Source of the DNA: Pedosphaera sp. | GTDB lineage: Bacteria; Verrucomicrobiota; Verrucomicrobiia; Limisphaerales; F1-12-MAGs170 | NCBI GenBank assembly: GCA_009695275.1 | Contig: SIBF01000001.1 | Span: 1-55,552, forward strand | Direction of reading: 5' to 3' | DNA length: 55,552 nucleotides | Shown: one piece after another, positions 24,801 through 54,402 of the stretch | How positions within the stretch are numbered: the stretch's first letter is position 1 | Layout of the letters: every line of letters starts with the position of its first letter | Notes under the pieces: model-generated | Database searches by the model: none | What the model saw: the letters and a program-made list of their open reading frames with translations, nothing else | What the model was told of the DNA's origin: nothing | Program-made: the position numbers and the translations under genes

Positions 24801-24905
24801 GATGCTGGCAGAGGAGGCGCGCGTCGCCAAGGCGGACAAGACCGCCGCGAGCGCGAGACCAATCAGCGCAAAGGAAACTGATCCATGGAGAAGGCTATTT
24901 CTCAT
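21804..24905 (-). CDS. secreted surface protein (~1033 aa): signal peptide, 2 GEVED domains, IgGFc-binding-N-like domain, HYR domains, conserved FYRI tail (paralogue of the C-terminal half of 14357..21787)
   Basis: ATG 24905 ('MRNSLLHGSVSFALIGLALAAVLSALA'); the track start GTG 24920 is also possible. Either start overlaps the stop (24895-97) of the giant upstream ORF. 'DFGDAPDGPYPTTLKKNGARH...GEVEDY' occurs twice. 'GTDFWLTFPGNYAPDPANPV' and the following sequence is collinear with the 2476-aa protein. Confidence 0.9.
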   Translation of the reverse strand: MRNSLLHGSVSFALIGLALAAVLSALATRASSASINTIAPPPTGAGKLDFGDAPDGPYPTTLKKNGARHGIVEGFTLGRRIDPELDGQPHADALGDDVLPAGAADDEDGVVFSSSLVPGQAATVVVTVLGQGLLNAWVDLNLNGSWADEGEHVFNDLSLATGAHTLSFIVPVSAKQGRTFVRFRWSHEPKLSFLGPAKDGEVEDYSVNIESELLDFGDAPELENGGFPTTLARNGARHHILKGFHLGRIEDGELNGQPNAAASGDDANGSLDDEDGVRFLSALTPGTIAQVEIITTASGRIDAWVDFNRNLSWADASERIFNGQVVATGVNVLNFPVPASAQAGSAFARFRFSREGKLNFDGDGGVGEVEDHVARIEKAGRCDLSCEGTDFWLTFPGNYAPDPANPVKPGLWVLGNPGTQVTVAIPGLGFNKNVVIPASSCVNIDLPKETDLGDKSDFIDDKGIHVTATAPVGIHGMSKVKFSSDGYLALPTEALGTEYFVLAYGNEQAGVPELDGTQFAIVATEPDTTVIVIPGAVTGPHAAGVPFPVPLGAGETYQLRASGVGADLTGTHILSDKPIGVFGGHACANVRSASSSFCDYVVEQLPPVNRWAAEFYLRRLATRSKGDTVRVLAGYDNTIVSVNGAPVATLAAGGFYETVRPASAAVNGTQITASRPVLVAQYANSSDFDTVASSDPFMSLVPGRPLFNAQQKFCVPTGFLTHHINVIAPTAAAGSVLLDGVAVGGFSPIGVTAYSEATKAVVPGVHSLTAAQPVGVTLYGWNQYESYGWPTCLFFGDTTPPTVNCPPPAVATLNANLTAVRICKAPVPDFRSKVTFTDNCPPSQTFAGAGGVVTQDPPPGTFVGPGVHEVVCSVADARGNVGFCVTTFTVTDPNADPDAKPVLHCPQDMVVKCADDNGAIVDFHAFATVDCDEVPLECVPPPNSLFPVGTTTVICTLPGSSPPLTCEFKITVSCAQISVAPVLNNSQLTISWSGAGVLQVADSPAGPWVDVTVGGNEITINTSESKQRFYRIK

Positions 24906-27900
24906 AGATCGATACGGCACCGGCAGATTTCGAGGGCGGAATCAGGGTGCGGGCGGCCATGTCCGCGCGAATCGTCTTACTCTCGTTACCCAAGATCGCA
25001 GCCGTCACCGTCCTCGATCTCCCGGGCATCGGACCATCACTCCAACCCGCCGCCTCAAAACCGAGCAGGCTCACCAAAGTCACCACGCTCGAATTCAGAA
25101 CATGGATCGTTTCAAAACCAGCGAAGAACACGGTCTTGTAGCCGGGCGTCACCAATTTTGTCGGAGTCTGGGTCGTGGCCAGACCGAGGGCATCGTAGTT
25201 TATTACATCCTCGGTTCCTCCTCCGCCTTCGATCTCCAGAGTGACCGCCACGGAAGGTGTGATGTTGAAACTGTCGCTTTCAGCACCGCCGACAATCTTC
25301 TCGATGTTCTCTCCGGCGTGAGTGACTTTGTTCGTGCCTGCGATGATGTTGATTCCGGCGTTCACCATCACAGTGACCCCGGCTCCTGCGTCTGCGAAAC
25401 GGATCTGATCGTTGCCTTCAGACACAGCCTCGGCGATCACGTCGGTTCCCCAATCCGCGCCGAAGGCGTAGGTGTCGTCACCTTTGCCTCCTCCGAGCAA
25501 GTCGTCGCCAGCGCCTCCGTTCAATGTGTCGTTGCGAAGTCCGCCCTTGAGCGTGTCGTTGCCCCCGGCTCCGTTGAGCGTCACCGCGCCAAGGGTAAAA
25601 GCCGAGGCATCGATCGAGTCGCCATTCACGCCGCCGGTCAATTCCGCCGATTCAATCGACAGGAGGGTGTCAATTTCCGCATCGATTTGCAGCGAGACAT
25701 CTTGCAACACAAAATCGGCATCGCGCGTCTCGACGACGCGATCCAGGCCGCCGGGGCCGCCGTTCAACGTGTCATTGCCCTGCCCACCGGTCAGCCGGTC
25801 GTTCCCCGATCCGCCGCGCAGCGAGTCCGCTCCGTCACCGCCGAACAGTGTGACGGACCCAAGTGTGAAGGCCGCCGCGTCGAGAGTATTCGGACTCGCG
25901 CCGCCAACGAGCGTGGCGGTTTCGATGCCGGTGAGAGTATCCACTTCCGCGCCGATCTGGAGCGTGCCGTTGCTCAGGACCATGTTCGCATCGCGAATGG
26001 CGACCACGCGATCCAGCGCGGACGCGCCGCCGCGAAGGATGTCGTTGCCATCGCCGCCGATCAAGGTCACCGGACCAAGGGTGAAGGCACTCGCATCGAT
26101 CGTGTTCGCCGAGGCGCCACCAGAGAGAAAGGCCGATTCAATGCCATCGAGCATGTCGGTCTCGGAGCCGATCTTCAGAGTGATGTTGCTCAGGAAAAAA
26201 TTGGCGTCGCGAGCCTCAGCAATGGCGTCGTTGCCCAAGCCACCTTTCAAAATGTCATTCCCGGGGCCGCCGGAGAACACATTGTCGAGATCGTTGCCCG
26301 TGATCTGATCCGCCAGCGCGCCGCCAATGACGCTCTCGATGGAGTTCGCATTCCGCAATTCGAGTGCAAGGTAGATCACGTCAGGATCGGGCGCGGTGTT
26401 CAGCACCACGGTCTGCCGGACCGTGAGGGAAAGATCAATGGTGATCGGGAATCCTGTGGTCGCGCTGAAGTCGAGCGCGTCAATGCCACCGGAGGGATCG
26501 CCTGCTTCGAGGATCACGTCGCTGCCGAGATCGGAATCGGCGTCGAACAGATAACGGTCATTTCCCGGACCGCCGCTGAGATGATTCTCAAGCGCGTTGC
26601 CTTGGAGGACATCGTTGCCCGAGCCGCCGATCAGATTCTCGATCCGGTCTGCGGCGATGAGATTTAGGAACAGACCGGCTTTCACCTGCTGTGGGGCCGG
26701 ATTAGCCAGATTGACCGTTACACCGGCGGTGGTGGTCGCCGAGAAGTCGAGAGTGTCAACGCCGCCATTGACCGGAAGTTCAACAATCGTGGTGGTGCCC
26801 GTTTCCACATCCGCGTTGAACTTGTAAGTGTCGTTGCCGGAGCCGCCGTTGAGCAGATCATTCCCGCCGCGCCCTTCGAGGATGTCATCACCCGCAACTC
26901 CGCCGATCACGTCCGCCCCCGGACCTCCGATCAGGTGGTTGTCGAGCAAGTTGCCAGTGATCGTGTTCCCTGCCTGGCCACCCAGGACATTTTCGACCGC
27001 GGCACCGGACGAAAGTTGAAGCTCCAGATTTCCGTTCACGACCTGGGACGGAGGCGTGCCATCCGCCAGATTCACCGTGATCGCGCCGCCGGTGGTGGCG
27101 GAGAAGTCAAGCGTGTCAATCCCGCCTTCAATATCGGGCTCTTCATTTACGGTGTCCGAGCCAAGCGGCAGGTCCGCGTCGAAGCTGTAGGTGTCATCAC
27201 CGCCCTCGCCAGTCAAAGTGTCATTGCCGGCAAAACCGGTGAAGTGGTTGGCGAGGGAGTTGCCAGTCAGAATGTCGTTTCCAGTGCCGCCAGTGACATT
27301 TTCGATGCCGTGACAAGCGATCAGGCGGAGCTGCAAATTTCCATTCACCACCTGCGTGTCGCCTTCGCCAAGATCGACAGTGACGGGCGAACTGGTCAGC
27401 CGGAAATCGAGCGTGTCATTTCCACCCGTCCCAACATCCTCCCAGATGTAATCCAGACCGAGCGGCCCGTCCGCATCAAAGAAGTAAATGTCGTCACCCG
27501 CGCCACCTTGCAGCCAATCGTTACCAGCCGCGCCAAGGAGCGCGTCATTGCCAGCGTTGCCCTCGATGCGGTTGCCGAGTCCATTCCCGGCAAGGACATC
27601 GTTCAACGCGCCGCCCTTGAGATTCTCCACCCCGCTCCCGCTGGCGAGCGTGAGGGTGTGGCGGAGCAACGACGCAGGCGCGGGCGTGCGAGCTGCCGGT
27701 TGCGCCACGGTGAGGGCAAGACTGACGGTGACTACGGCGCTTTCCGTGCTGGAGTAATCCAGAGTGTCGATCCCGCCCCCGGGCACTTCAAACACACTGT
27801 CGGAACCGATGGCAAAGTCTGCGTCAAAGACGTACGTGTCGTCACCGTTTCCTCCGCTTAGGATGTCATTGTTCGCTCCGCCGATCAGGGTGTCCGCGCC

Positions 27901-30900
27901 GACACCGCCAAGGAGAAAGTCATCCCCGCCGCGACCGTCGAGCGTGGCCGAGCCGGTGAACCCGCCCGCGTTGAGCGAATTATCGCTGACACCACCGATC
28001 AGGGTTGCGGCCTCGATGCTCACAAGCGCATCGGTCTCACCGCCGCCGAATGTGAGCGAAGCGTCGGTCAGCACCATGCTGAGGTTTCGTTCTTCGAGCA
28101 CCCGATCCACACCGGAACCGCCATCGAGGATGTCATTGCCAGTGCGGCCGGTGAGAACATCCACGCCCTGCAAGCCTTCGATCTTGTTGACGAGCGCGTT
28201 GCCGATGAGCGTGTCGTTGCCACGTCCGCCCTTGAGATTTTCGATCACGCCAGCGCCGCTCAAGGCCAGTTCGAGATTCGAATTGACCGCCTGCACATTC
28301 GTTGTTCCGAGATCGACGGTGACGCCGACATGAAGGGTGCCGGAGAAGTCGAGCGTGTCGGTGCCACCGGAATTCAATTCCGTGATGCCATCGCCAAACG
28401 TCGTGAAGAGCGATGTGTCCGCGTTGAAGATGTAGGTGTCGTCACCCGCGCCGCCGGCCAGGTTGTCGTCGCCCGCGCCGCCAATGAGCGTGTCCGCACC
28501 CGAGGTGCCGAGGAGCGAGTCGTCGCCCGCGCCACCATCGAGTTTCACCGTTCCCGTGGTGAAGGCGGAGGCGTCGAGTGTGTTGTCCCCGTCCCCACCA
28601 GTGAGTTCGACACGTTCGATGACGCCGGTGTAGGTATCGGTCTCGCCCCCGATCTTGAGCTGCGAGTTGCTGAGAATGAAGCTGGCATCGCGCTGTTCGG
28701 TGATGGTGTCCACGCCGCTGGCAGTGATGGTGTCGTCGCCTGCGCCCCCGGTCAGGAAGTTCTTGCCCGTGCCACCCACGATAATGTCGTTGCCACCGCG
28801 TCCGTCGAGGCGCACTTCTCCGCTGAAGGTTGACGCGTTCAGCGTGTTGTCATTGTCGTCACCGACCAGGCTGACATTCTCGAAGTCCGAGTAGGTGTCC
28901 ACCTCGCCGGCGCTGATGAGCGTGAGCGTGGCATTGGTGAGATTGAAGCCGCCACCGCGCTCCTCGACGAGCGTGTCACTGCTCGTGTCGCCGGGTGGAC
29001 CGCCATCAAGCACATCGTTGCCCTCGCCGCCCTTGATGCGGTTGCTGTTCAAGTTGCCCACCAACCAATCACTCCTGGCGCCACCGTAGAGATCTTCAAT
29101 GCCCCTGGAGTTGGAGATGGTGAGGCTGAGATTCGCGTTCACGGTTTGCGAGACGTCCTTGCCAAGATCCACCGCGACCCCCTGGAGCGTGGTGGCGGAG
29201 AAGTCGAACAAGTCTTCATCCAGGCTCGATCCAAACAGCCCTGCGGACTCGAAGATGTCGTCGTGCCCCAGCGGCCCGTCAGCGTCGAAGAGATAAATGT
29301 CCGAGCCGCGCCCACCCCGAAGTTCGTCGTCGCCACTTTTTCCTTCGATCGTGTCCCTGCCCGCGCCGCCGAGGATTCGGTTGTCGAGCGCATTGCCCGT
29401 GAGGACGTCATTCTGATCGCCACCAATGACGTTTTCTATGACATTGCCCGCCGGGAGAGTGATCGAGAGCGAGTTGGTGACCGCCTGGAGCGCCACACTT
29501 CCAAGATCGAATTTAATGGCGCGGCTGCTGGTCTGCGACAGGTCGATCGTGTCGTTGCCGCCGAACGGCGAGGCAACTTCGATGATGCTGTCGGCACCCA
29601 GGTTCTTGTCGCCGTCGAAGCGGTAGGTGTCGTTCTCGCCGCCGCCATCGAGCTTGTCGTTGTCCGGCCCGCCTTCGATCAGATCGTTGCCACCTTCGCC
29701 GTAGATTTCGTCCGCACCCTTCGCACCGATGAGCTGGTCATTCCCGACACCGCCGAGCAACTCCGCTTTGCCCAAGTTTGTGAAGTAGCCGAAATCGCCG
29801 AGCATCACGTCATTGCCGTCCTGGCCGAACACCTTGTCATCGTCGGGGCACGGGTTGTCGAAGATGAGCACGATGGCTTCGGGGAGATTGCCATAAACCG
29901 GGCCGCCCGTCGGATTCCCCAGACGGACACGGAAAAACTCCGGCACCTCGGTGAGATTGTCTTTCTTGATCGGGATGACAAACGATTTCTCGTTCTCGTC
30001 CACGCCAAAGCTGACGGTCCGCCGTCCTATCGCGCCCGCAGCGCCATTTTCCCAGATGCCGATGTAGTCGAGGTTGTGAAGAGCGGTGGATTGCTCCGTC
30101 CAGTAGGTACCGACCGGCTGGAAGCTGTTCGGTGTCCGGAGAATGCCGACCGTGGCGAAGCCGTCGGTCTCGCGCACGCTATAGACGACGTGGTCGAACT
30201 GAAGGCTCCACGGACCGGCTGAACCGGGCGGGACAGCCTGAAATCCAGCGTCGATATTCGAGACCGTCTGCCCGGCGTTGACGTGGAACGACAAGGTGAT
30301 GCCGGTCACATCGCTGGCATCGCTGTCACGGTCGTCAGAACCGATGTCAGGGAAGGCGAAGGCATAGCCGGCGGGCGGCAGGAACTGGACATAATAATCG
30401 CAGGCGGCAAGTTTGGTGAACTTGTAGTTGCCGGACCCCTCGGTGTAGGTGATGCCGACAAGCACCCACTGCGAATCGAACAAGTTCACTTGAACGTCCT
30501 TCACGCCCGGCTCGGCGTTTTGCTCGCGATCATCAACCGGACTGCTGTCGAGCCAGACACGGCCCTGGATTGTGCCTGGCGCGGGAATCGTCGCGGGATT
30601 CACGTAAATGCGCCTGCCGCCGTCGGCGGGATCGGCGTTGGCAGGCTGCTGGATCAACTGCGCGTCGTAGGCGTCACCCTCGCACGCGCAACCCGGCCCG
30701 AGCCAGTGTCCGCCGATGAGCCAGTCGTTGCCCGGACCGCCATCAAGGACATCGTTACCCGTCCCGCCATAGGCCATGTCATTGAAGAAGGCCAGGCCGG
30801 TGCCGGTCGAGGTGTCGGGTTTGGCTTTCTTGGGCGGTGTGTAAAAACCGATGCTGTCCAGCGTCGCGACGGTGGTGCTGACAGTGGTGAGGAGCGGATT

Positions 30901-33900
30901 GCCTTTCGCGGTGCTGACGGAGCTATCGACCGGCGTGGTGCTTTCATCCACGGTGACGGTCAGCGGCCCGAGCAAAACGTTCTTCGTGAACTGCCCGATC
31001 GTCCCCACCGAATCGGTCGTCACCGTGTACTCGGTCTTGAAATCCTTGATCTTGACCGTGACGCCGCCGAGCCCCCAATCGGTGCTCGGGTCGAAGAAAC
31101 CGTTGTTGTTCGCGTCATAGAAAACGAAGCCGGTCACCGCCGAGAAATCGTCATCGTAGATGTAGCCAAAATCCTCGAAGCCGGCAATCTCGGCATTCAC
31201 CGGATTGGTTATGCGGGCATAAACACTTTCCCAATCTTCGGAAATCACGTCGTCAATGAGCGTCACTTCCACCTGGATGATCTGAGTGCCGGAAAACGGA
31301 GCGAAGATCTTGGTGACCGGGCCGACCGGCAGGAAGTCCACCCCGGCGATCGCGGTGCCATTGTAGGCTGCCCAATCCACGGACACGGGCACCTCGCTTT
31401 TCCCCTCGGCCACGATGTCAAAGAGCATCTTGCTCGGCGTCACATCCATGCCCGGCCCGTTCCCGTCAGGCGATGCGTCCTCGGTCACACCGTCGGGCCA
31501 GTCCGGACCTATCAAATTCAAGGCGAAAATGTACACCTTTGGCTTCGGGTCATCCTCGACGATGGTGATCACGGCCGTGTCGTTCGGCGCGCGAACCTCA
31601 CCGCCGGTGGGATTAAGCAGGTGAAGAACGATGGTTTCGTCGCCCTCGTAAGCGTCGTTGTTGACTATGGGAATAATGATCTCCTTCACCGTCTCCTCCG
31701 GGGCAAATTGGACCACGCCGCGCGGACCGCTCGTACCACTCTCCCAAATCCCGGTGTAATCAAGCCCCGGCGTGGCCGTGCCGCCAATGCTCCAGAAAAC
31801 CGCCAGCGGCTGGGAGCTGCCCTCGGCACGGACCAGATGAACCGTCACCGACTCTTCCGACTCCTTCACTTCGTAATGCGTCCGCGCCCACCCAACGTAC
31901 CACGGGCCGGGATCGGGCACTTCGTCATTGGCAATCGTGACGATGGCGTGATTCAAATCATCGTCCAGTACGTTCAGCCGGCCGTTCGAGGCCCGGAGCA
32001 GGTTGACGAAGAATTGTTCGTTCGGTTCGAGACGCGTGTCGCCGATCACCTCGACTTCGATCTCGATCTGATTCAATATCTGACTTTCACGGAAGGTGAC
32101 GGTTTCGAACTTGTAAACGAAGTCCGGACGTTCGCCGGGTGGCGCGGCGTTCACGGCGGTTCCGCGCGTCGTATTCCAATCGAAGGTGACATCGCGTCCG
32201 CTGACGGCGCTGAGGCGGACGTTCAAATGCACGGCGGTATTCCCCGCCTGGCCTTCCGGCGTCGAAACGGTATTCGGGAGGAACTCGACAAACGGCATCG
32301 CCTCGTCGTCCAAAATTCGCCCGGTGGCCACCGGCCGCCCCACCACGGCGGCATCGGACGGCATCAATGAGTCCATGCGGACGGCCATTTGGAACTGCTC
32401 GTCATACTCGTCGAGCGCGTCGTTGAAAACCGGGATGACAACTGTTTTCTCCGTTTCGCCGGAAGCGAAACTGACCAAGCCCGGGGCTGTCTCGAAGGCC
32501 GCCGAATAATCCAGTCCAACACCCGGTTTCGCGCCGTCGAACACTCGCAGCCCGCTCGAATCCACGACCTGCCGGGTCATGTATTCCACGTCAATCTGCT
32601 GGTAGCTGGAATTGCTCAACCGGATCACGAAAGTCATTCCGGTGCCCTCGGGCGAAGGCAGATTGTCGTTCGGCGTGGGATCGATTTGAACGCCGTCGTC
32701 CACGGAAATGACAGGCGCGGCATCGTCGTCAATGATCGTGCCGGTGCCCGTCTGATTTGCCGGATCAATGTCGGCATTCCATGCGTCACACAACTTCACC
32801 GTGAAGGTCTCGTCCAATTCATCCATGGTGTCGCCGATGATTGGAACAACGATGGTCTTCAACGTTTCGCCAGGCTGGAATACGAGCGTGTAGGAAACGG
32901 TTGAATAGTCGCTGATCCGCTGCGCGCCACCCAATCCGATGCCGGGCTCGGATTCATAGCAAACCACGACCGCTTGATCGCTGACGCTCGACATCGTGAC
33001 CGTGAAAGTAAGGTTCGTGATCCCGGAATCGCCCTCGACCACAGACGGATTGTTGATGACCAGCAATGGCGTTGTGCCATGCACACCCGCGTCCCGAGTG
33101 TAATCCACCTGGCCGTCGGCCACCGTGAAGGTGTCGGTCACGCCTGTCCCGGGATTCACGTCGCTGTCCACTTCCTCATCGACACCGGACTGTTTGACCA
33201 CGAAGGCGAGGCCGGTTGGAAGCGTGAAGCGGAGCTTGTAATCACCACCCTGGAGTCCGGTGAACTTGAAGGCACCGTCCTTGTCGGTCGTGGTCTTGGC
33301 GACGACCGCGCTGGTCGAGTCGAGCAACTCGACCTTGATGCCGGCCACGCCCTTCTCGCCCGGATCGCGCACATCGTTCCGGACACCGTGTTCGTCCACC
33401 GCGTCGAGCCAGATGACATCACCGATGTTCGCGCCGGGGAAGGTCGTCACGACCGCGCTGTGCGCGTCGTCGGCGAAGACAAGATCGTTCCCGTTACCGC
33501 CATCGAGGAAGTCCTCGGTGTCGGTGCCCGTGTCACCCGGAGTCACCACTCCGCTGACCAAAAGTGTTCCTCCAAACAATCCATCATTGCCGCCTGCTCC
33601 GAAGAGCACGTCGCTTCCAGGCCCGCCGGCAAGCAGGTCATTGCCGGTGCCTTCTATGTCCTGCACATTGAAAATGCTGACGATGATGCCGTCGTCGCCG
33701 ATGAGAACATCGTTGCCCAGGCCGCCGTCGATGGTGTCATTGCCATAGGTTCCACCCGGCGTGCTGTCGTCTCCGATCAATTTATCGTCTCCCAGACCGC
33801 CGTTGATCGTGTCATCGCCTTCGCCGCCCATGACGAAGTCGGCGCCTTCATCCGCTTCGATGGTGTCGGCACCTGCGTTGCCCTCGATGGTGTCGTCACC

Positions 33901-36900
33901 GGCAGCACCGAAGATTTTGTCGTTGCCCGCGCCGCCGTAGAGCATGTCGTTACCGTCGCCGCCATACAACATGTCGTCGCCGTCATCACCATACAAGTGA
34001 TCAACACCCTCCAGGCCCGTCAGCACATCGCTCCCGGAGCCTCCGTGGAATTCATCGTCGCGGCCCGTGTAGGTGTCGTCCGTCTCCTCAGCGGTGATCG
34101 TGTCGTTGCCGTTGTCACCGTCGTAACGCCCGCCGCCGCGTCCGGCGTAGAGGGTGTCATTGCCGTCGTCGCCGTGGAGGCCACGATCCGCCGTGGAGTT
34201 ATCCACCGGCGAGGTGACACCGATCAGATTGATGGTGTCGCTGCCCGCACCGCCCCGCGCCCAAATCTTCTTCACGCCGTAGTAGGTCTGTTTGATGCCG
34301 CCAAATGCGACCTCAACGGTTTCGCCCTGGGCGGTGTCCTCAATGTGAGTGACGGTGTATTTCTCGTCGGCGTCGGTGGTGTCGCCGATTTCCCGTTCGG
34401 AAGCGTACTTGCCGATGTTGAGCCGGAGGCTGCCGGCGCCGTCGGCGGTGGCGATTTCACTGCCGCCCGCGTTCACGTAATTCGCGAGCACCGGCTGCGG
34501 ACAGGTCACGTCGAATTCGAGGAGTGTGATCTCCGCGAACCGCCAGGTGGCGTCGATCTGGAAGAAGAACAGGTCGATGATCAGATACGCTTCAAGGAAG
34601 AGGTTCATCTCGCCGTGGATGTCAAAGATGCACCGGACATCCTGCTTCGCGTTCGCGATCAACTCCGAGATGCGGACTCGTCCGTCGTCATCCGGATCAT
34701 TCAGATTGAAATCCACCGTCACCTCGACGCCACCGCGGACACCCGCCTCGGCGATGACAATGTCGATGGAACCGGCGGCGTAGAGCGACCCGCCCAGCGT
34801 CAACTCCGGCACGTCATTTCCGTCCTTGTCCACATCTTTGATGTAAAAACCGTCGAAAATATCCAGGACGTTCTTGTCTTCGCTGTTGAAGAATTTCTGA
34901 ATGCCGAACGTGTCGAAGCCGATGGTCAGATCGGCGTAAGCGCTGACCTTTCCGCCGAACTTCACGTAGAGCGGCCCGATGATGGGGATGGACAGCTCGA
35001 AGCCGGCCTCGAAATCGAGCGTGGGAATGTGATACTCGAAAAGGCTGACCGGCTTTCCGAGGAACAGCTTCGAAATTTCACCGATGGAAAGGAATGGCAG
35101 CTCGATTCCAATCTTCTTGAGATCGTCCAGGAAGCCAAGGATCGGGCCGGGAACATTGGCTTTGCCGATGGCCTGCCCCGGTTTGAGGCCGGATTGCTTG
35201 GCGACCTTTGAACCGCCGGCCCAATCCGGCGTGGCAAAGAATTTCCCGATGTCCCCCAAGTCCACCGCAGGTGCATCCACCTGCCCTTCGAGGCGTCCGA
35301 CCTTGCCAAACTTGTCGGTTTGCAAGTCGAAGCTGCCAAGCGAGAGCAGGATCGAGCCGTCGTTAACCACGGTCGAGTTCGCCATACGGATGACGACAAC
35401 CAGCACATCGATGAATTCACGCGTGCTCGGAGTGATGAGTCCGAACGCCTCGGCCATGTCGAGCAGGCTGTAGGGTTTCCCTGCGAGATCCGAGATGATC
35501 GGCAGCGGCGCGGTAATGACATCGACGACAGGCCCAAGCGGCTCGGTGATCTTGTTAAGCTCCTTGAGGATCGGCCCCATGAACTCGGCAATGAACGAGC
35601 CGACATCAAGCGAGACGTTGTGGATGCCGAATTCCAGATCTCCCTCCGAGTCCCCGCCGAGCACCCACTTCCAATTCAGGTCCAACTCCGCCAGCAGCCT
35701 CGGGAACCGGGCATCGCCGCCGAAGCTGAGAATGAGATCCAGGGCAAGGTTCGCCTCGGCGCCGAGTTCCGCTTTGATGAACTTGTCAAAGCTGAACCCG
35801 CTGCTGGTCATGTCGCCGAAGGTCAGCTTGTTCCCGCTGCCGACCGGATCCTTCAGATCTACGGAGAAGTAGCCCGTGAAGTGGGACGATTCGCGGGGAT
35901 CACCGGCGAGGCTGACACCGTCGGATTCATCGAGGACTTCGAGTTGCAGGAAGAGCAACTGCCCCTTCGCCTTCAAGCCCGGAATGGTCAGGCTGAAATC
36001 GACCCGCAACTCCTCGGGATCGGAAGTGTCGAAGTAAAAGCCATCCGTCGCGGTGATGGCGAATTTCAGTTTTAGATCGAAGCCAATCTCGATCTTCACA
36101 TTCCCATCGACGCTCAGGCCAAGGCCGGGAACCCCGATGTCGAAATCAATCGGGTCGCTGCTCGTGTCCAGAAGCGCGGCGGATTTCTTGAGGCGAAGGT
36201 TGAACTTGATCCCGTTGCCTTCGCACTTGATGTCGATCTGCTCCGCGCTGGTGATGGGCGATCCATCGCTCTTGGCGAGAATGTCGAGTCCGGGAGTGCC
36301 CAGCGCCTCGAAGATGGCCTTCTTGGCGAGCGTGATCGGATCGCCCCCCTCAGCGAGCGTCTGCCGGAGCTGTGCGAGAAGGCCGTTGCGGAATTCCATG
36401 ATGGAATCCGCCGCCTTGCCGAATTGATCGCCCACCAGCGGCAGGTTTCTTGAAAGCTTGTTGCCCAATCCGTCTTGAATGACGCCGAGCAGCGCATCGA
36501 GTCCATCGACCAATATCTCCGGGTTGTTGACGATGTCGCAGGCATCGATGTTGTCGAAGAGGCTCGAAATGTCCGGTGCCCGCAAGACCACCGCGCTGGT
36601 GTCCCCGGTGAAAAGCTGCGAGAGCGGACCGGATTGGAAGACAAGCCAGTTATCCGGCTCGGTGCCGGCATCCGGCCCGTCGCTGGTGCTGCCGATCGGG
36701 AGGCTGCCCAACGCGAACAATGGGAGATTCGCGCTTGCGGCGGCGGTGAGCGTGACGCCGATGTTGTCCGAGTCGAAGAAGGTTTCTCCGCTGCGGAAGT
36801 AATGCCGTCCATCGCCGTTGCTGTCCTTGAATGTGACACCAAACGAGGCGCTGTCTGTCGTTGTGGTGGGATCGCCATCGCCGTCGAGTGTGACGGTGCC

Positions 36901-39900
36901 GTTCTTGATCGAGACCTTGAGGCTGCCGATGCCGGCGGAGAGGTTCACTCCGGTGGCACGAACAGCCGCTTTCAGTGTGAGGCCGGTCGTGTCATAGAGA
37001 AACGGAATCAAATTGCAGCCGCTGCTGACATCGAGTCCGAACTCGATCATGAGATTGGCGCTGGCGGTGACATTAAGATTCGCCGAGCCTTCGATCTGGA
37101 TGATGTCCGCAACCCCTTCCAGCACCGCCCGCGCGGGATGACCAGGCGGGAGGAGTCCCACAATCTTCCCGAGGTCGAAGGCGAACGGCAGGTAATTGCC
37201 ATAGGAAAGCCCATACTCGAGATGGAACTTGATCGCCGTCTCCGTGAGGGTGTTCGCCCCGTCATTGCTGGCACCGTCGCCCACGGGTGAAACTGAAGTG
37301 TCGAGACCGGCGCTGAATGGGCTGGCGACGCTGGCGTTCAACTTGTCGCGGACCTTCGCGGCGGTGGTGTAGGTCGCGTTATAGACAATCTTGACGGTCT
37401 TGTTCGTGTTATCGACGACGATGCTGGCGTCATTCACGCCGTCGGCGAACGAGCCGTCGTCATCGAAGTCGATCTTCCAATCGTTGAACACCGCGCCGTT
37501 GCTCCTGGCCGTGAACACCAGCGCGTTCTTCTGGCCGGACGGATTGAAGCGCGCGACAGCGGCGGAACCGGCCGAACCACCCGCAGGCCCGGAAGTTTTC
37601 GCGTCATCGAGCTTGATCCAGAACTTGGCCGGGTCCACGCCGAAGAGTTTCTCAAGGTCGCTTTCGAGCTTGGTGATCGCGGAACTGTCGCCGGAAGAAA
37701 GGCTCTTGAAGGCGCGGGCAATATCTCCGGCGAAATCAAGCACGTCGCTCACACTGACATTGATCAGAGGCAGCGGCTCGCTCAGGAAGGAAAACGCCTT
37801 CAAGCCCTCCAGTTGATCGCTCAATGAATCGAGGACGGCGACAACATCCAGAAAGCTCGCGCAGCGGAAGTCCCCGAGCGAACCAAGTTTCGGATAAGTG
37901 ACGAAGGTGCCCTTGTTGTTTGTCGCGGCGTCGTAAGCGGCACCATTGTAGTGAACATCGTGAAAGTCAGGGATGAAAATCCGGAATTGCGATCCTGGCG
38001 GGATCAGCGGATTGCCGGAGAGCGTCGGCAGATTCGGCAGCACTGTGATGTTATTCAACTGAATGTCCACCGAGCCGGTGATCGACGTGTCCGGCGTGAC
38101 ATAGCTGCCCAGGTCCGACATGTGCCTGAGGATCATGTCCAGATCCAGGCGTGTCGGATGCAACGAACCGGGCGGCTCATGCGGATTCTTGAGCTTGAGC
38201 GTGGCGGCGAGCGTGCCGGTGGCCGTCCCGCCGCTGGTGGAGAGTTCAAAGATCGCAAAGCGCGCCTTGGCCGCAAGGTTGGTGGCGGAAACGGTCAATG
38301 TTCCTCCGAGCTGCACGTCTTCGAGGAAGACGCCGCGATTGGCTGACTTGGCCGGCACGATGTTGTTCATGCCGATCTCGGTGACAATGGGATCGCTGTT
38401 CGCCGATTCGATGGCGATCGACGTGATGACGCCGAGGTAACTGTCGAGCACGCCATTGTGGAAGAACGGATCGCCCGTTACCACGTCCTCCTCGACATCC
38501 AATTGCCCGTCGTTGTCCGTGTCTTCTCCAGCATCGAGAACGTGATTGCCATTGGCGTCCTCGTTCACCGTGTCGAGCTTGCCATCGGCGTCCTGATCTT
38601 CATTGATGGCTTCGATGAAGATGCCCGGGCTGAGAGTGGTTGAGACAAAGCGAATGACGCGGTTGAGCGGCTTGCCGTGGTAAGCCGGGCCGGTGCCAAG
38701 GAGGCCATTCAAATCGGCGGCGAGGTCGGCCACGCTGGTATTGTTGTCAGTGCGCAATGGCCCCACCGACTTCGAGAGCGTAAAGGTATGCCGGTACTCT
38801 CCGTCATTGAGGTTGATCGTGAAGGTCGAGTCGGCGGTCGTCCGGCCGTCGGACGGCGGCGGCAATGTCGGGGAACTGATGAGCTTGGGCACCGTCAGAT
38901 CGCCAAGATTCATCCCGAGTGTGAAGGAGATGCTGGGCGTGCCACTGATGCTGAAATCGCCACTGGCCGAGATGTCCACCAAGTCGCCCAGGCCGATGTC
39001 CGGATTGTATTTGAATTGGGTGGATTTGGTGACCGGGTAGCTGAAACTGAGGGCGATGGCGAAGGTCTTGTTCACCAGATCCACCTGCGGATCGATGTTG
39101 AAGGTGGCCGGGCCGGGTGGATCAAGGATCTCGTTCAGTTTGGCGAGCAATCCCTGGATTGTCGGGAATTTCGGGAACGAAACACCGGACGAATCACGCG
39201 GAAAACCAATTTCGGTGAACGCGGGATTCGACGCATCCCCGGTGATCTTGAGACTCGCGCCGGCGAGCAGCTTCAAGGCGATCTGCGAACTCTTGAGGAT
39301 GGCCTGCACCTTCGTGCCGAGTCCGGCACTGGTGAGAGCCTCGTTGATGTCGAGAACGAGATCGGCAAGGGCGGAGTTGTTATCGAGACCGGTGTCCGTG
39401 CTCGCCTTGGTGACGGTGACGGTGACAGCCGATGCGCCGTCGATGCTCAGGCCGAACACTGCGTTCCCCGTCAACTGCCCCTTCGCCAGTTTGCCGGTCG
39501 GACTGCCGGAGCTGGTGCTCGAGACGAGTTCAACATCGACCAGCCTGGCAAAGATTTGATCGAGGAATGCGGATCCGAAATCGAACGACCCGCCAATGTT
39601 CAAGCCGGAGCCGAAAGGCAGATCCACCTGCAGCAACGCGCTGCCGCTGATGCCGCCAAGGCCGCTCAAAGTTCGCTTCAATTCCCCGTAGAAATCCTCG
39701 ATCCGGAAGTTGAGGAAGCGGTAGAGGAAGGCTCCGGCCCCCGCAATGCCGCCGACAGGCTTGACGGTGACTTCGAGCGGGTGACTGATGTCCGGCCAGA
39801 TGACCTGGATCGTGCCGACAGGGATATCGAAGAGCGGGGGACCGCCGGGTTCCATGCCGGCGACGCGAATGTCCGTTTCGAACACAAGGTCATCACCCGC

Positions 39901-42900
39901 CGCGCCGAGCATGTTGACTTCGAAAAATTTGGCGGGGTTGTTGGCGAACTCGTAAAGACGGATGAGTCCATCGCCGCTCTCCCCTGGATGAAGCAGATTG
40001 GCCGGTTCTTTTATCTTGAACGCGATCCCGACCTGCGGATCGACCGTGATACTGGCGTCTTCCAGAATGACCTCCAGCGGCCCGAGCCGCCCTGTTGCCG
40101 TCAACGCTCCGTTGATCCGGATGTTCCGGATCATCACTTCCGGATCGACCATGTTTTTCTTGAGGTAAAAACCCTTCCCATCAATCCCCATCTCGATCAT
40201 CAACTCGACATCGAGCGAAAGCTCCAGACTGCCGTGAATGCTCAGGAGTCCACCGAGAACATCGACATTCACGGGCGCCGAGACGGTGACGGTGCGGCGG
40301 AATGGCGCGCCTGGCTTGCCCAACTGCAGGATGCCCGAGCCCGCATTGGCAACCACGTTCAGGGGCGAGTCGTCCAGCGAATCGAGGAGCGTCTGAAATG
40401 CCCCATCCGTGGTGATCAACGTGCCAAGATCGGATGGCCTGAACGGACTTCCCGATTCAAAGATGCGACGCCACAGCGAGCGCGAGTCCAACCCAGCGCC
40501 GGCCAAAGACTGTTCCTCCGCTTCCGCAGCTTCGCCTGGCTCGTCGTGAGCCGGACCTTTCCCATTGAAATTGCCCCCGTTCAATGCCGATCCGAGAGCG
40601 TCACCCACCACCGGGGTGTCGTCCGTGAACAGATCGCCGATCATTCCGAAGAAGCCGGTGATGTGATCCCAGACATCCTTCCAAAAGCCGATGAAATCCT
40701 CAAGGAAAGTGGTGTCGTCGAAATGCTCGACGTTTACCGAGAAAACCTTCTGCGGTCCCATCTGTCGGATCTCGACACCGTCTGCTGAACTCGTTTCAAG
40801 ATCGCTGGTGGTCGGTCCCGTGAAATCGAGCGAATCCTGAGTGGTCTGGCCACCGCCGTTGTAATCAATATCTCCAAGAACCTGAACCTCGCCATTGGCG
40901 CTATCCACGATCAACGTGTCGTTCCCAGCCCCGGTATGCACCGAGATGTCTCGAACCGTCGAGAGTTTGAAGCTCCCAATCATCATCTCCGGACCGCCAG
41001 AAGCGACGAACACCTGCAGCTCGGGAGGAGTTCCGGACGCGGGACTGAGCTTCAAGCGGACCGTGTCGTCGCCCGGGCCGGTGTCGATGCGCAGCACGGC
41101 GTCCTGAAAGACGATGCGGCTGGCGTTGGGTAATTTCCACGCTCCCCTGCCCTGCGTGCCTGCCACCAAAACATCGTCGGTCCTGTCGTAAACCAGGTCG
41201 CCGACAACGACATTTGGAAAATCGTCACCAAGGCGGGTCCAGTTCGCGATGACGGGTGAGAACGAAAGGAACACGTTCAAATCAAAAATCCCCAGCCGAT
41301 AAACTCCGTCGTGAGCCCCCACCAGCAGCACATACTCATTATCGCGCCGTAAAACCTCGACCGAGCGGAAGCTTCCAACAGTGCGAAGTCCTCCGGTGAT
41401 ATCCGTCTGGGTCACGCCCGTTACCTGGTTCGAGGCGTCCACCGCGGTTTGAAGCAGCCAGACATGGCTTTCATCCACGGCAAAGGCCGTCTGCCAATTC
41501 GTCGGATCCAGAACGATATCGGTGATCGATCCTCCTCCAGGCAAAGTCACGGTGCGGAAATTGACGCCATCCGAGCTGACCGCCACCGTGCTGCCACGCG
41601 CCACATACATCACGTTCGTCACCGAACTTCCGTCCTTCATTCCTCCGTAGGCCAGGGCGCTGACAAAATCTGAAGACGCAGCGGCGAAGGGATCCTGAAC
41701 GATGCTGACGGTGTCCCCGCGGTCCGTGCTGCTGTAAACCCGGATCCGGCCAAGCAACAGCCGGTTGGAATCCGTGGCATTCACCACCAGCGGGATGCTC
41801 TGAAATCCGGAGAACGTCCTGTCTGTCTGTGCTCTCCGAAAACCAGGAGTGTTGTCCAACCCGCTGTAGTTCGCGGCACCAGCTCCTGATTTCAGCGGGA
41901 TTCGAGTGGCGGCGGAGAATGTGTCGGCGTTCAACGGGTTCGTGAAATCTCGCCGGTCGAAGAACTGGAAATTGTTTCCCATGTAATAGCGCGTCGAGAC
42001 CGCGCCATTGTACCCGACCGCCACATAGTTGCCGTCGCCACCGGAGAGATTCGACCAATCGGTGGGGGTCGCAGTCTGCCGAATCACGCCGGTGTCCTGC
42101 GTCCCGGCGAAGATTGAATTCGTGCTATGATCGTAGGCGACCGAATGGGTGATCTCGGCGATGCGCAGGCCCCGGCCCACGAATTCCCAGGCCGGTGACA
42201 AATTTGCGGCGCGCGGATTTTGCAGGCGGTACGGTCCGCCGTCAGTCAGCGCGATCAGGTCGTTGTTGTTGACCGAGAAAACGAGGTGCCGCGTGTCCGC
42301 GTGTGGCGCGGTGGTGAAAGGAGCGGGAATGGCCCCGTTCTTCGTGGTGATCTGCGTCCAACCGGCACCGCTCCAGCGATAGATGATCGCGAAGTAAGGC
42401 CCTTCAAGATTCGCGTCGCCGGCGATATAGACGGTGTTGGCATTGAGCGGGTCGGCAACCAGGCCGAAATGCAAATCGCCCTGGCTCCCGTTTGTTCGAG
42501 GGATCGAGTTGAGCACCGTCGAACCGAGCACGTTCCAGTTGTCCCCCTGGTCGCTCGACTGAAAGACACCAGCCGGCTTCCCATCGTAACCGATGACCAC
42601 CGCATAAACAGCGTTCCCAGCCGCTTTGCTGACGGCGAGCCGGATGCGAAGTGAGTTGGCCACCGTTTCTGGCACCACACTGGTTGTGATGGCACCATTG
42701 CGGTCCAGATCTTCTCCTTCGTCCAAAACGCCGTCCGCGTCGGCATCTTCGCCAGGGTCAAGAATCCGGTTGTTGTTCGTGTCCTCGCCCGCGTCGAGCA
42801 AGCCATTGTTGTTCAAATCCTCGCTCTGCTGTGCTTCCCCGGCGACACCGTCATGATCGTAGTCCGGCGCCAAGCCGTTGATCTTCCTCGACCATGTGAT

Positions 42901-44592
42901 CGTGGCCACGTTGATGTTCTGAGCGTTCGTCGAACGCCAAATCCCCCGTGTGCCGGCCGGAGAATTGGAATCAGACACTGATAGATAAAAGCGATTCGCG
43001 TCTCCCGGATCCTGTAAGACGTCGATGATGTCCGCCTCGGGCAGCGTTCCCTTCCCGGAGAGACGGACAAAGCTGTCTCCCCCGTTGTCGCTACGGTATA
43101 AGCCGCCCTTGCCCTCAACTGTTCCGACCGTAGCGGTGGCTTTGTTCGTTGAAACATACAGCCACCCAGCCAGGTTCCTCGATGAAACAATCGAAGTGAC
43201 CGCCAGGTCGTCGAACGATCCAATCTCCTGCCAGGACTCTCCCCCATCCTTGGATCGGAACAAGCCAGCCGAGGGTCCGCCCTCACGCGCGCTGCTGAAC
43301 GAGCCGGTCCCCGCGTAAAGCACCAGTTTGTTTTGCGGCGTCGCGTTCGTGACCAGATCCGCGTTGGCGTCAAAGTAACCCACCGCCACCGCGCCGATGG
43401 CCAGCGACGGCAGATCATCCCCGACGGGAGTCCATGAAGGGTTGGCCGTGTTGAAGTTGGTGGTTTTCCAAACACCGCCACTGACCGACGCCAGAAACGC
43501 GATCGCCGGATCCGTCGGATGGAACACGACGGAGTTGACCGCGCCGACGACCGGGTTGTCAGGCGGCACTTTCGTATTGGAATTACCGGAAGTGACGAAG
43601 GGCCCCTGCTCAACCCAGACGGCCGGTTCATCCAGGATCACCACCGACGGAACGTTCGGAACAAACCGCAGGAAGAGATCCCGTCCGTTGGCCGACAGAT
43701 CGATGAGAAAAACGCCCGTGCCAACACTTCCCCAAAAATCACCGGCATCGAGATCGAACCCGTCCCGATCAAAACCTTCGATGCCCTGCGTCGTGTGAAC
43801 AAGTCGCCAGGAGTATGACTTGGTATTGTCGAAATTCGCCGCGCCCAAGGGAGCGCCCCCCAGGGTCACCGTGTGGATGTCCACGAGGTACTTGCTCGCG
43901 GCAGTGGCGTTGATGGTGAGCTTTCCGGTGATCTCCAGCAAATCCCATCCGGTGCTGCTGCCTTCCACTCCTTCGGCATCACTGATGTCCCATACAAACT
44001 TCTCCGTCCCGCTCCACGCTTCATCGACGGACAGGACGGTCTTTGCGGGCACGTGTGCCGTGGATGTATCCGTGTGTTTCCCCACGGCCCCGCCATGCAA
44101 ACCAATCCATCGGAAATCGGTAGAGTTCGCAGGCGGCCCATTCGCCGCACGCAGGGTCTCCACCAATTGCCCGCTGGTTGGATTCGTGATCTGATCGCCG
44201 ACTGTGGCGGGCACATCTTCCGACGGGCTTGCCGGTGAAGTTTGCGCTTTGGGGGAAATCCCGGACGCTTCGTTGATTGCCGCGGCGGCAACGATTTCTT
44301 CGCCACCAGGACCGCCGTCGTTCAAATCCTCATTTCCCGCGGAGCCATCGGCTGGCGCCGATGAAAAATCGCTCAAGTCAAGGGGCCTGCTGTTCTCGAA
44401 AAGATCCAGAACCGCGTCGATCGGATGATAGGTATGTTCGCTGGTTTGAGAACTGGCTGGAGCGGCGATCTCGATCGTGACTTCCTGGGTTCCTGCGAGC
44501 AAGGAGGCGGGAGCAAGTGCGGAGAAACCTTCCGCTGAAAGCAGCAGCCTTGGCTCCAGAAGTTCGATCTCAAATTGTCGTTGAAAGGACAT
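24895..44592 (-). CDS. giant (6565 aa) LEPR-XLL-type mosaic extracellular Ca-binding protein: BNR/Asp-box propeller, TSP3-like loops, ~2300-aa unassigned core, RTX blocks, Calx-beta and SdrD-B-like units, ~1470-aa C-terminal RTX module array
   Basis: Single uninterrupted 19.7-kb ORF starting '[22 protein letters not shown]'. Asp-boxes: '[11 protein letters not shown]', 'RSDNGGDSF', 'SSDQGDNWN'. Many GGxGxD nonapeptides ('[26 protein letters not shown]'). Calx-beta-like units ('..DY....G.L.F.PGE..K.I.VPI..D...E.DE.F.V.L'). SdrD-B-like units ('GRVWLD...GV..V.V.L.D......T.T...G.Y.F..L..G.Y'). Confidence 0.92.
   Translation of the reverse strand: [6565 protein letters not shown]
25440..29860 (-). 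repeat. C-terminal RTX (hemolysin-type Ca-binding nonapeptide) module array, ~1470 aa
   Basis: Dense GGxGxDxL/I/F motifs organised in two recurring ~90-115-aa module types (see findings). Confidence 0.85.
29870..33440 (-). repeat. Calx-beta (about 6 units) interleaved with SdrD-B/Cna-B-like (about 3 units) block
   Basis: Units listed in the CDS evidence. Boundaries are approximate, judged by motif positions only. Confidence 0.7.
33465..34190 (-). repeat. first RTX nonapeptide block of the giant protein
   Basis: '[15 protein letters not shown]', '[62 protein letters not shown]...[13 protein letters not shown]...[20 protein letters not shown]'. Confidence 0.85.
41130..43650 (-). other. BNR/Asp-box (sialidase / VPS10-like) beta-propeller region of the giant protein
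   Basis: Recurrent 'S-x-D-x-G-x-(S/T/N)-W/F' boxes and 'GGVWKT', 'GLYRS', 'GIWRS', 'VFQS' blade starts. It ends near '[14 protein letters not shown]'. Confidence 0.65.
44533..44559 (-). other. LEPRxLL N-terminal signature of the giant protein (aa 12-20, 'LEPRLLLSA')
   Basis: Read directly from the translation. From memory, it matches the motif that names the 'LEPR-XLL domain' used in RefSeq annotation of very large repeat proteins. No Sec-type hydrophobic core follows it. Confidence 0.6.
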
Positions 44593-47992: not shown

Positions 47993-48051
47993 AATAAGTA
48001 TGTGGCTACGTTACGACTTCGATTTCGGAATCGGTTTGGGACTTGCGACGA

Positions 48052-48079
48052 ATTAGACGGGAAAATCCGGGCAAGTCAA
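48052..48079 (-). promoter_or_regulatory. candidate sigma70-type promoter of pseudopilin 1
   Basis: Minus strand: TTGACT (48079-48074), 16-nt spacer, TCTAAT (48057-48052). It lies about 60 nt upstream of ATG 47992. The same architecture is conserved upstream of paralogue 2. Confidence 0.4.
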
Positions 48080-54396: not shown

Positions 54397-54402
54397 TGTG
54401 GG

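Follow-up and report, generated by a model that had tools for sequence, protein, structure and literature searches.

A LEPR-XLL giant protein of Pedosphaera sp. and a candidate export cluster associated with its family

The N-terminal motif PF07595 ('Planctomycete extracellular', RRLxxExLExRxLLA) was put forward in 2004 as an export signal of a new kind (Studholme et al. 2004; PMC8567305). In Tuwongella immobilis, the motif is present on 52 genes, including those of 8 of the 10 longest proteins; 20 motif proteins were detected, 8 of which were exclusive to the SDS-soluble fraction (PMC8567305). The related name LEPR-XLL has been mentioned in passing for a ~8000-residue giant of Vibrio sp. VB16 with C-terminal RTX repeats and for a Limnohabitans protein. 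In addition, a Chlorochromatium preprint describes the Chlorobium chlorochromatii giants Cag_663 and Cag_665 (36,806 and 20,647 residues), which are flanked by sapC and tolC, and proposes Sap/type I secretion system (T1SS) export for these LEPRxLL giants. For the export of LEPR-XLL and planctomycete-motif proteins, the searchable papers guess at a 'novel signal peptide' or 'probably T1SS/Sap'. Here we report a computational analysis of a 55,552-nucleotide stretch of Pedosphaera sp. DNA (contig SIBF01000001.1, positions 1 to 55,552; hereafter referred to as the window), which encodes a 6565-residue protein (hereafter, the giant) with a LEPR-XLL motif at its N-terminus.

In environmental bacteria, the longest genes often encode giant repeat proteins, which are presumed to act in adhesion, predation or symbiosis. 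The giant resembles the T1SS-exported RTX adhesins LapA, MpIBP, SiiE and FrhA in its size, acidity, calcium-binding repeats and the position of the RTX repeats near the C-terminus, and its family would share with LapA-type adhesins a functionally important N-terminus and partners of the membrane-fusion protein (MFP) and TolC types. However, LapA-type systems use an ATP-binding cassette (ABC) transporter and a C-terminal signal, whereas many LEPR genes are accompanied by an M50-like protease–MFP fusion and a SecA paralog, and none of those sampled by a HlyB-type ABC gene.

Comparing genomes, we show that the LEPR motif is N-terminal, widespread and linked to this gene cluster in both neighbourhood directions, and that it occupies the place of a Sec signal peptide in homologous proteins. 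The motif itself is probably an export or sorting leader; that this leader and the SecA-like/M50–MFP cluster form an export route, for the family and for the giant, stands at about even odds. A further-reaching reading, to which we assign a probability of roughly 0.4, is that LEPR-XLL and 'Planctomycete extracellular' leaders may be the address tag of an undescribed, widespread trans-envelope export system of diderm bacteria. This system would be a tripartite conduit resembling a T1SS, in which a non-ABC engine (the SecA paralog and the fusion protein) would recognize the leader and drive megadalton adhesins N-terminus-first through MFP and TolC-type components, with clipping of the leader, and of which the giant would be a scattered substrate.

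The N-terminal motif of the giant and its relatives

The giant is encoded by an uninterrupted 6565-codon open reading frame (ORF) of 19.7 kb with an ATG start, in agreement with the coordinates and description given by the sequence-only reading of this DNA, and its translation starts MSFQRQFEIELLEPRLLLSAEG. The gene and its motif are placed as follows.

24895..44592, minus strand: whole giant gene, intact ORF of 6565 residues
44506..44574, minus strand: LEPR-XLL motif, residues 7–29 (FEIELLEPRLLLSAEGFSALAPA), by NF012209 and a custom hidden Markov model (HMM)

The computed protein (685 kDa; pI 4.13; 13 cysteines) contains no transmembrane-like segment over its whole length (19-residue Kyte–Doolittle maximum, 1.46). 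An in-frame TGA lies 9 nt (three codons) 5′ of the ATG and therefore rules out a longer N-terminus with a conventional signal peptide. The Met-to-motif distance is also the same in four orthologs, in which the motif is at residue 12 (P0035, P0047, P0061 and P0063); the upstream stop and this conservation together exclude a misassigned start that masks a normal signal peptide.

The first 61 residues match NF012209 (LEPR-8K, NCBIfam) at residues 7–29 with 24.7 bits (E = 1.2e-5), and the score is 18.8 bits when the giant is queried as a 2500-residue chunk; the curated cutoff is 17 bits. The score thus exceeds the cutoff, and the motif opens a protein of very large size, in line with the earlier identification of the RefSeq-named LEPR-XLL domain. 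The motif regular expression has one match in the six-frame translation of the window, and the custom 31-position motif HMM gives 27.1 bits for the giant, the sole scoring ORF there, which places the giant among bearers of an LExRxLL-type leader, the proposed substrate class. The giant is best filed as a further member of the named, functionally uncharacterized LEPR-XLL family, ordinary for its class.

The N-terminus is neither a Sec nor a Tat signal, as had been read from the letters alone. The 11-residue Kyte–Doolittle maximum is 1.65 in the first 30 residues and 1.88 in the first 400, compared with 2.4–3.3 in homologs with real signal peptides, and the segment is interrupted by the charged residues E, E and R, unlike a Sec type I signal. 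The first 60 residues contain neither the RR pair (S/T-R-R-x-F-L-K) nor the hydrophobic h-region that a Tat signal would have. A double-glycine leader of the kind used by peptidase-containing ABC transporters (PCATs) was considered and rejected, there being no GG cleavage motif at the N-terminus. As a word-indexed protein search query, the first 331 residues returned a single match, of 197 residues, and tblastn with the 34-residue N-terminus gave no match in plasmids.

With the PF07595 planctomycete proteins, the giant shares the ExLExRxLL[AS] pattern, which in those proteins follows an N-terminal basic stretch, the very large, repeat-rich extracellular carrier and the lack of a hydrophobic core. 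It differs from them in a proline at the variable position (LEPR), a single basic residue before the motif and its match to LEPR-8K. Its own version is ExLExRxLLS (EIELLEPRLLLS), in which the Arg-rich stretch of PF07595 is reduced to one R, and the Pfam profile finds no match on the giant at E ≤ 10 (gathering threshold, 25.5 bits). The LEPR-XLL motif nevertheless grades into the PF07595 motif: NF012209 matches the giant, P0001, P0023 and P0024, and PF07595 matches P0002, P0029 and P0007 with sub-threshold scores of 24.1, 16.6 and 15.1 bits. The alignment of P0002 with the giant extends from the β-propeller onward, so that orthologous proteins carry the two variants of the motif. The earlier statement that LEPRxLL is uncharacterized is thus to be qualified, in that the motif runs into a proposed export signal.

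Across bacteria, a degenerate DNA pattern for ExLEPRLLLSA, run on GTDB species genomes with Arg fixed as CGN (a slight sample bias), matched at least 120 loci, in Planctomycetota, Verrucomicrobiota, alpha-, beta- and gamma-Proteobacteria, Desulfobacterota, Nitrospirota and Acidobacteriota. For 119 of the 120 matches listed, an in-frame stop precedes the motif, and the motif falls in approximately the first 100 codons of a long ORF. We rejected chance occurrence on this N-terminal placement, set against ~35 random hits estimated by hand for the whole collection. In the sampled LEPR loci, K and R account for 26% of the nine residues preceding the motif, and for 1% of the residues that follow it.

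A second line of evidence comes from a conserved core domain in the middle of the giant, which belongs to no Pfam or NCBIfam family and regularly precedes the RTX block in relatives. An exhaustive phmmer search with residues 2690–3445 found 2343 representative clusters at E ≤ 1e-3, 860 of them at E ≤ 1e-30, and the word-indexed search found 30 homologs. Among the best 150 core-domain relatives, 71 start with LExRxLL and about six more are near-misses; P0084 and P0095 carry classical Sec signals instead, as do P0017, P0018 and P0021 in the word-indexed set, and the remainder of the 150 are fragments or have unclear N-termini. The same exchange is seen directly before the W-x-x-Q-G-P start of the propeller, where LExRxLL is found in P0002, L291, L293 and L296, and a cleavable-looking Sec signal in L289 (Massilia) and L295 (Chthoniobacterales). 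This interchange with Sec signals, together with the cluster adjacency described below, lends comparative support to the suggestion of the sequence-only reading that LEPRxLL may be a targeting signal.

Two of these relatives merit description. L287 (CAMBEJ010000003.1), the closest propeller relative in the genome collection (44% identity, ORF of more than 4000 residues), is on a contig whose label 'MAG: Akkermansia muciniphila' looks doubtful; together with ortholog P0056 (= L023, Verrucomicrobiia), it points to Verrucomicrobiota relatives. P0002, the closest word-search homolog, is split at L006:10001-25740 into three consecutive ORFs of 2976, 81 and 2212 residues, probably through a frameshift or mis-assembly in a giant gene of over 5000 residues.

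A SecA-like/M50 gene cluster linked to LEPR genes

Since E. coli HlyD and TolC were too distant as tblastn probes, missing most MFPs and all outer-membrane factors (OMFs) of Planctomycetota and Verrucomicrobiota, MFPs and OMFs at LEPR loci were detected by Pfam scans and locus-derived probes. A recurrent operon emerged, comprising genes for a GAF-domain MFP (GAF-MFP, ~585 residues), an M50–MFP fusion protein (~725 residues), a SecA paralog (~660 residues) and a smaller MFP, followed by the LEPR gene; SapC, DUF3467 and TolC/OEP genes are added in many lineages. In 8-kb slices, core cluster genes were found at 23 of the 119 sampled LEPR loci, and SapC or TolC alone at 8 more. The nearest upstream ORF of LEPR genes, determined by Pfam at 105 loci, encodes an HlyD-type MFP in 13 cases, OEP in 5 and SapC in 4. 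No HlyB-type ABC gene was found by tblastn in the visible flanks of the 119 LEPR genes.

The association holds in the reciprocal direction. We collected 80 loci (mostly proteobacterial) with an M50–MFP fusion as bait and 78 with a Phycisphaeraceae fragment, and inspected at most 10 kb of flank per side with the leader HMM (true hits, ≥11 bits; noise, ≤8.8 bits). Among these 158 cluster loci, the GAF-MFP is present in 149, the SecA paralog in 134, the small MFP in ~106 and SapC in 30; distant, ATPase-only HlyB matches occur in 8. An ORF with a LEPR-type N-terminus lies within 10 kb at 25 of the 80 and 21 of the 78 loci (46/158), and at 22 of the 54 loci whose available sequence extends 6 kb or more downstream; it stands 1.4–5.7 kb downstream of the fusion gene and, with few exceptions, on its strand. 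These counts are lower bounds, because variants such as LEEHILYSAD escape the HMM. A propeller-based locus search, which returned mostly unrelated BNR propellers, supplied the signal-peptide comparison above and a negative control: the 80 loci obtained with the unrelated BNR propeller motif contain no M50 fusion gene, and ~2600 control ORFs gave no spurious leader-HMM matches, the sole matches being in genuine propeller homologs. The sequence-only reading had suggested looking for co-occurrence of the motif with a particular transporter family; such co-occurrence exists, with the SecA-like/M50–MFP/MFP/TolC cluster and not with an ABC–MFP–OMF system.

Annotated alphaproteobacterial plasmids illustrate the arrangement (L370, NZ_CP085155.1; L371, NZ_CP049813.1; L372, NZ_CP088148.1; L373, NZ_AP022333.1; L374, NZ_CP123586.1). 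Their gene order is giant, DUF3467, MFP, 'PqqD family' M50–MFP, SecA-like, MFP and TolC. The giants have 8,100–12,700 residues, and four of the five begin with the motif, the other having an annotated start without it; one is RefSeq-named 'LEPR-XLL domain-containing protein' and the three others with the motif are named otherwise. Substrate and cluster stand in one operon in cultured Mesorhizobium ciceri R30, Pontibrevibacter nitratireducens, Pseudosulfitobacter sp. DSM 107133 and Methylosinus sp. C49. The plasmid annotations disagree on the SecA paralog, which they call 'translocase', 'DEAD/DEAH box helicase', 'prepilin peptidase' or 'preprotein translocase subunit SecA'. For the M50–MFP fusion, they give 'PqqD family peptide modification chaperone', 'peptidase M50' or 'hypothetical protein'.

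The cluster is also present in Planctomycetota and Verrucomicrobiota (L209–L228, L367–L369, L016, L066 and L121). Planctomycetota cluster loci have the full set, including OEP, with an adjacent LExRxLL gene in 6 of 20, and in the Verrucomicrobiota locus L016 the SecA paralog and OEP are directly upstream of the LEPR gene. P0024, an NF012209-positive homolog of the giant's core domain, is followed by an M50 fusion gene that begins right after the P0024 stop. Two further observations concern the composition of the clusters. A DUF3467 protein of ~100–120 residues recurs (L369:7662-8024, L367:7526-7897 and 37 other cluster loci), its gene usually standing just before the GAF-MFP gene or between the giant gene and the MFPs; one might guess at a chaperone or adaptor. 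At L024/L168, two transposase genes lie between the M50 fusion and the MFP.

The SecA paralog contains SecA_DEAD, SecA_PP_bind and P-loop_SecA domains (Pfam) and aligns to residues 31–603 only of Bacillus subtilis SecA. It keeps nucleotide-binding domain 1 (NBD1), the preprotein cross-linking domain and NBD2, and lacks the helical wing domain and the other C-terminal parts by which SecA docks on SecY. Its score of 596 bits is below the SecA cutoff of 814 and it is under every SecA2 cutoff. It would resemble the SecA2 of Gram-positive bacteria and mycobacteria as a second SecA-type ATPase dedicated to few unusual, often giant, surface proteins; unlike SecA2, it is truncated and occurs in diderms, with MFPs and TolC instead of SecY2.

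The fusion protein has invariant HExxH and NGNPLLxFDGY motifs, with about six hydrophobic segments around the HExxH site. Its Planctomycetota versions have an N-terminal PqqD domain (29.7 bits; Pfam threshold, 23.4), and the PqqD/RRE (RiPP recognition element) fold binds leader peptides in the pathways of ribosomally synthesized and post-translationally modified peptides (RiPPs). In NCBIfam, the fusion protein comes closest to the intramembrane leader proteases of the daptide and YydH/LiaK kinds (9.5e-51); it is not a member of these RiPP protease families, because it scores 173 against a cutoff of 300. In an AlphaFold model (mean pLDDT, 87), the C-terminal 285 residues match MexA, AcrA and MacA, including the α-hairpin (Foldseek 3e-12, TM ≤ 0.78). 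Among the candidates scored, the family accounts for over 4500 clusters at E ≤ 1e-20. The combination of a leader-recognition domain with an exporter-linked protease would follow the logic of PCATs and RiPP leader proteases (daptide HExxH, YydH/LiaK), from which the cluster differs in its proposed megadalton, rather than peptide, substrates and in having no ABC domain. Taken together, the parts read like a tripartite conduit equipped with a SecA-type motor and with domains for leader recognition and leader proteolysis. Such a cluster is apparently undescribed: a full-text search, covering a subset of journals, found no paper that ties the SecA paralog, an M50 protease and HlyD-type adaptors to LEPR proteins.

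Proposed export by the cluster and rival explanations

In the mechanism that we propose, the first ~30 residues (hydrophobic-E-x-L-E-P-R-L-L-L-S-A, usually with a basic stretch before) would be a dedicated export and processing leader, neither a Sec or Tat signal nor an incidental feature of a classical T1SS substrate with a C-terminal signal. The PqqD/RRE-like cytoplasmic domain of the fusion protein would recognize this leader and its six-transmembrane M50-like HExxH core would cleave it, while the MexA/AcrA-like periplasmic adaptor of the same protein would reach the outer-membrane channel. The truncated SecA paralog would supply ATP-driven pushing, and the DUF3467 protein, the GAF-MFP, the further MFP, a TolC/OEP-type factor and, in some lineages, SapC would be the other machine parts. 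The giant would be a substrate, with the cluster encoded elsewhere in its genome, which would suit the scattered loci of Planctomycetota and Verrucomicrobiota. We infer transport and cleavage of LEPR proteins by the cluster, the direction and energetics of the process and the giant's use of the cluster from the patterns described above. The giant's use of it is the weakest of these steps, because the window is without the cluster, adjacency is low in these phyla (4/47 LEPR loci and 6/20 cluster loci) and the view is limited to 55 kb. If the cluster is an exporter, it would be a tripartite secretion system driven by a non-ABC engine and would give a SecA paralog of Gram-negative bacteria a new function, and annotations such as 'PqqD family chaperone', 'DEAD/DEAH helicase', 'prepilin peptidase' and 'RND adaptor' would stand corrected. 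The outcome is a concrete candidate machine with defined parts, for which the prediction is RRE-like recognition and HExxH intramembrane cleavage of the leader.

Several observations weigh against this proposal. By tblastn, the M50 fusion, the SecA-like protein, the GAF-MFP and SapC were not found in the window, where the cluster proteins gave just weak matches to an MFP of the resistance-nodulation-division (RND) type. Cluster genes are in the visible flank of 4 of 47 LEPR loci in Planctomycetota and Verrucomicrobiota, compared with 27 of 72 elsewhere, and the neighbourhoods of five homologs from these phyla contain no cluster genes, ABC transporter, MFP or TolC within 10 kb. Conversely, 112 of the 158 cluster loci show no LEPR-type ORF in the visible flank, and the clusters of Candidatus Thiodiazotropha (L129–L133 and L168) are without the SecA paralog yet adjoin LEPR genes. 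The giant's n-region, with one Arg, is unusually poor in basic residues, and the invariance of the core positions of the motif is partly built in, the training motifs having been chosen by a fixed DNA pattern. To our knowledge, no M50-type protein conducts polypeptides. The support for the cluster as the LEPR exporter is all comparative, and the association of motif and cluster could stem from processing of the leader, from anchoring or from regulation instead of from transport. As a separate observation on the Thiodiazotropha clusters, they keep the GAF-MFP, the M50–MFP fusion and the small MFP directly upstream of the LEPR gene.

The most familiar alternative is a classical T1SS encoded elsewhere, in which an ABC–MFP–TolC system would export the giant C-terminus-first by an uncleaved C-terminal signal and the LEPR motif would serve as a LapA-like element for envelope retention, anchoring or processing. 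The layout that had suggested such a substrate is real: ~1470 residues of RTX repeats, with GGxGxD nonapeptides near the C-terminus, stand beside a ~180-residue non-repeat tail in a protein of low pI and few cysteines, and a C-terminal module (residues 6386–6510) is conserved among orthologs. The Vibrio giant likewise combines LEPR-XLL with C-terminal RTX; genes for TolC, SapC and MFPs adjoin LEPR genes in Proteobacteria and Desulfobacterota; and Sap/T1SS export is what the preprint proposes for Chlorochromatium. The step from this layout to a T1SS is nonetheless weak. Because RTX-bearing relatives use Sec signals, RTX in the giant's family is by itself no sign of a T1SS; the last 55 residues, where the signal would be expected, are unconserved; no HlyB-type gene stands beside the 119 LEPR loci and the cluster loci offer only the eight ATPase-only matches; and the neighbouring MFP, TolC and SapC genes belong to the SecA-like/M50 cluster. 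C-terminal T1SS signals, expected in the last ~60 residues, carry no dependable sequence signature. The window itself encodes no such system, and the cognate ABC, MFP and OMF genes of a T1SS substrate were not found within it. We therefore regard a T1SS as rather unlikely. Distinctly less likely is that the cluster serves at the inner membrane only to recognize the LEPR N-terminus and to cleave or tether it, as a peptidase and quality-control or anchoring module, with the polypeptide crossing by another route. The resemblance of the PqqD/RRE domain and HExxH protease to RiPP leader-processing enzymes, the clusters without a SecA paralog and the general knowledge that M50 proteins are not known as channels would all suit such a module, whereas a protease covalently fused to a full TolC-docking adaptor with an α-hairpin, and accompanied by two additional MFPs, an OMF and a SecA-type motor that has a preprotein-binding domain, matches the parts of a trans-envelope conduit.

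Least probable of all, in our estimation, is an atypical general-Sec signal, read by SecA/SecYEG and followed by an outer-membrane step of the type II secretion system (T2SS) or type IV pilus (T4P) kind, carried out by genes 2.5–10 kb upstream of the giant. The motif does interchange positionally with Sec signal peptides in homologs, most family members have a basic n-region, giant Omnitrophota genes have been reported in the literature beside T2SS/T4P-like loci, and the window contains a GspE-like ATPase, an MshEN/TPR protein and two N_methyl proteins. Against this, the giant has no h-region (Kyte–Doolittle 1.65 versus ≥2.4), carries E and R within the motif and has one basic n-region residue; GspD and GspF are absent from the window, and T2SS genes show no enrichment around the 119 LEPR loci. 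Planctomycetota and Verrucomicrobiota have very many N_methyl/DUF1559-type genes, so that the adjacency of such genes to the giant is uninformative. Tuwongella has 100 of them (PMC8567305). On balance, we favour export of LEPR proteins by the SecA-like/M50 cluster over these alternatives.

Domain architecture and genomic surroundings

Beyond its N-terminal motif, the giant, which is a calcium-binding, cell-surface or secreted adhesin-like protein, is divided as follows (all on the minus strand).

43618..44505, minus strand: acidic low-complexity linker, then small domain common to close orthologs, residues 30–325
41143..43617, minus strand: BNR/sortilin-like β-propeller region, residues 326–1150, beginning W-V-E-Q-G-P (approximate limits)
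37126..41142, minus strand: central region without family assignment, residues 1151–2489 (no Pfam or NCBIfam match)
34258..37125, minus strand: conserved core domain without Pfam family, residues 2490–3445 (homolog searches)
33433..34257, minus strand: first RTX (HemolysinCabind) block, residues 3446–3720 (Pfam)
29848..33432, minus strand: three SdrD_B domains, ~7–10 Calx-beta domains and a short RTX stretch, residues 3721–4915 (Pfam)
25438..29847, minus strand: ~1470 residues of RTX/serralysin-type calcium-binding modules, residues 4916–6385 (Pfam, NCBIfam)
25063..25437, minus strand: non-repeat C-terminal module, residues 6386–6510 (blastp to orthologs)
24895..25062, minus strand: extreme C-terminus, residues 6511–6565 and stop, unconserved in orthologs (blastp)

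Residues 30–325 have blastp matches in P0035, P0032, P0034 and P0063 and belong to no Pfam family. The propeller gives a weak NF045728 match and is homologous to P0002 and P0032–P0039, and the central region shows partial homology to P0002, P0012, P0022 and P0027. Pfam identifies 6 HemolysinCabind stretches around residues 3450–3720 and 16 in the last 2565 residues; the RTX modules match NF035945 at 3e-88, under that model's cutoff. The final GGxGxD-type motif is at residue 6368 and is followed by a non-repeat tail of ~180–190 residues (24895–25437), so the earlier description of this end of the protein stands. Residues 6386–6510 are matched by blastp at or near the C-termini of P0034, P0039, P0051, P0053, P0058 and P0061. 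Orthologs (P0039, P0055, P0056, P0061 and P0063) tend to end soon after this module, where endings of the type ...N-[FV]-E-x-V-x-P recur, and the giant runs 55 unconserved residues further. Like the NF012209 giants of Vibrio sp. VB16, Chlorobium (Cag_663/Cag_665) and Pontibrevibacter (WP_205793450), the giant combines an N-terminal model match with extreme size, and C-terminal RTX/serralysin-like repeats are common to it and several NF012209 members. Its middle, with the BNR propeller, the Pfam-less core and the Calx-beta/SdrD_B arrays, sets it apart from other NF012209 giants, and, unlike Chlorobium and alphaproteobacterial LEPR giants, it has no sapC, tolC, M50 or SecA-like genes beside it.

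Pfam and tblastn bear out that the window contains no ABC transporter or TolC and that its sole MFP goes with an RND pump: the MFP gene (7147–8583, HlyD_D23) is followed by AcrB (8610–11789), and the next gene encodes a galactarate dehydratase, not TolC. As tblastn queries against the window, E. coli HlyB, HlyD and TolC gave no match. The window's MFP was considered as an export component and rejected, being paired with AcrB and weakly similar to the cluster MFPs (24–26% identity).

Upstream of the giant are a divergent DUF1501 gene, two N_methyl genes, a PF07638 extracytoplasmic function (ECF) sigma factor and MoeA, and further upstream a GspE/PilB-like ATPase (52654–54396; tblastn 2e-119 to EtpE) and the MshEN/TPR protein; this gene content is typical of Planctomycetota and Verrucomicrobiota. 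The ATPase, the MshEN/TPR protein and the two pseudopilin-like N_methyl genes had been missing from the sequence-only reading. The N_methyl genes are tandem paralogs with near-identical N-termini (47102–49182, minus strand), and the ATPase and TPR/MshEN genes together span 52654–55248 (minus strand); no GspD or GspF follows up to the window end. Identical copies of window genes are present on contigs of at most 19 kb in the ENA metagenome ERZ1305449.

Downstream, on the same strand, are two paralogous genes, at 21804–24920 (1038 residues) and 14357–21787 (2476 residues), whose products carry GEVED and IgGFc_binding domains as well as ordinary Sec signal peptides. The 1038-residue paralog overlaps the stop codon of the giant if the GTG at 24920 is used, and this overlap suggests co-transcription. 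The two paralogs share a ~110-residue C-terminal domain ending in ...FYRI(K/RP), and the 2476-residue protein additionally has Big_9, Cadherin_5 and Ig domains.

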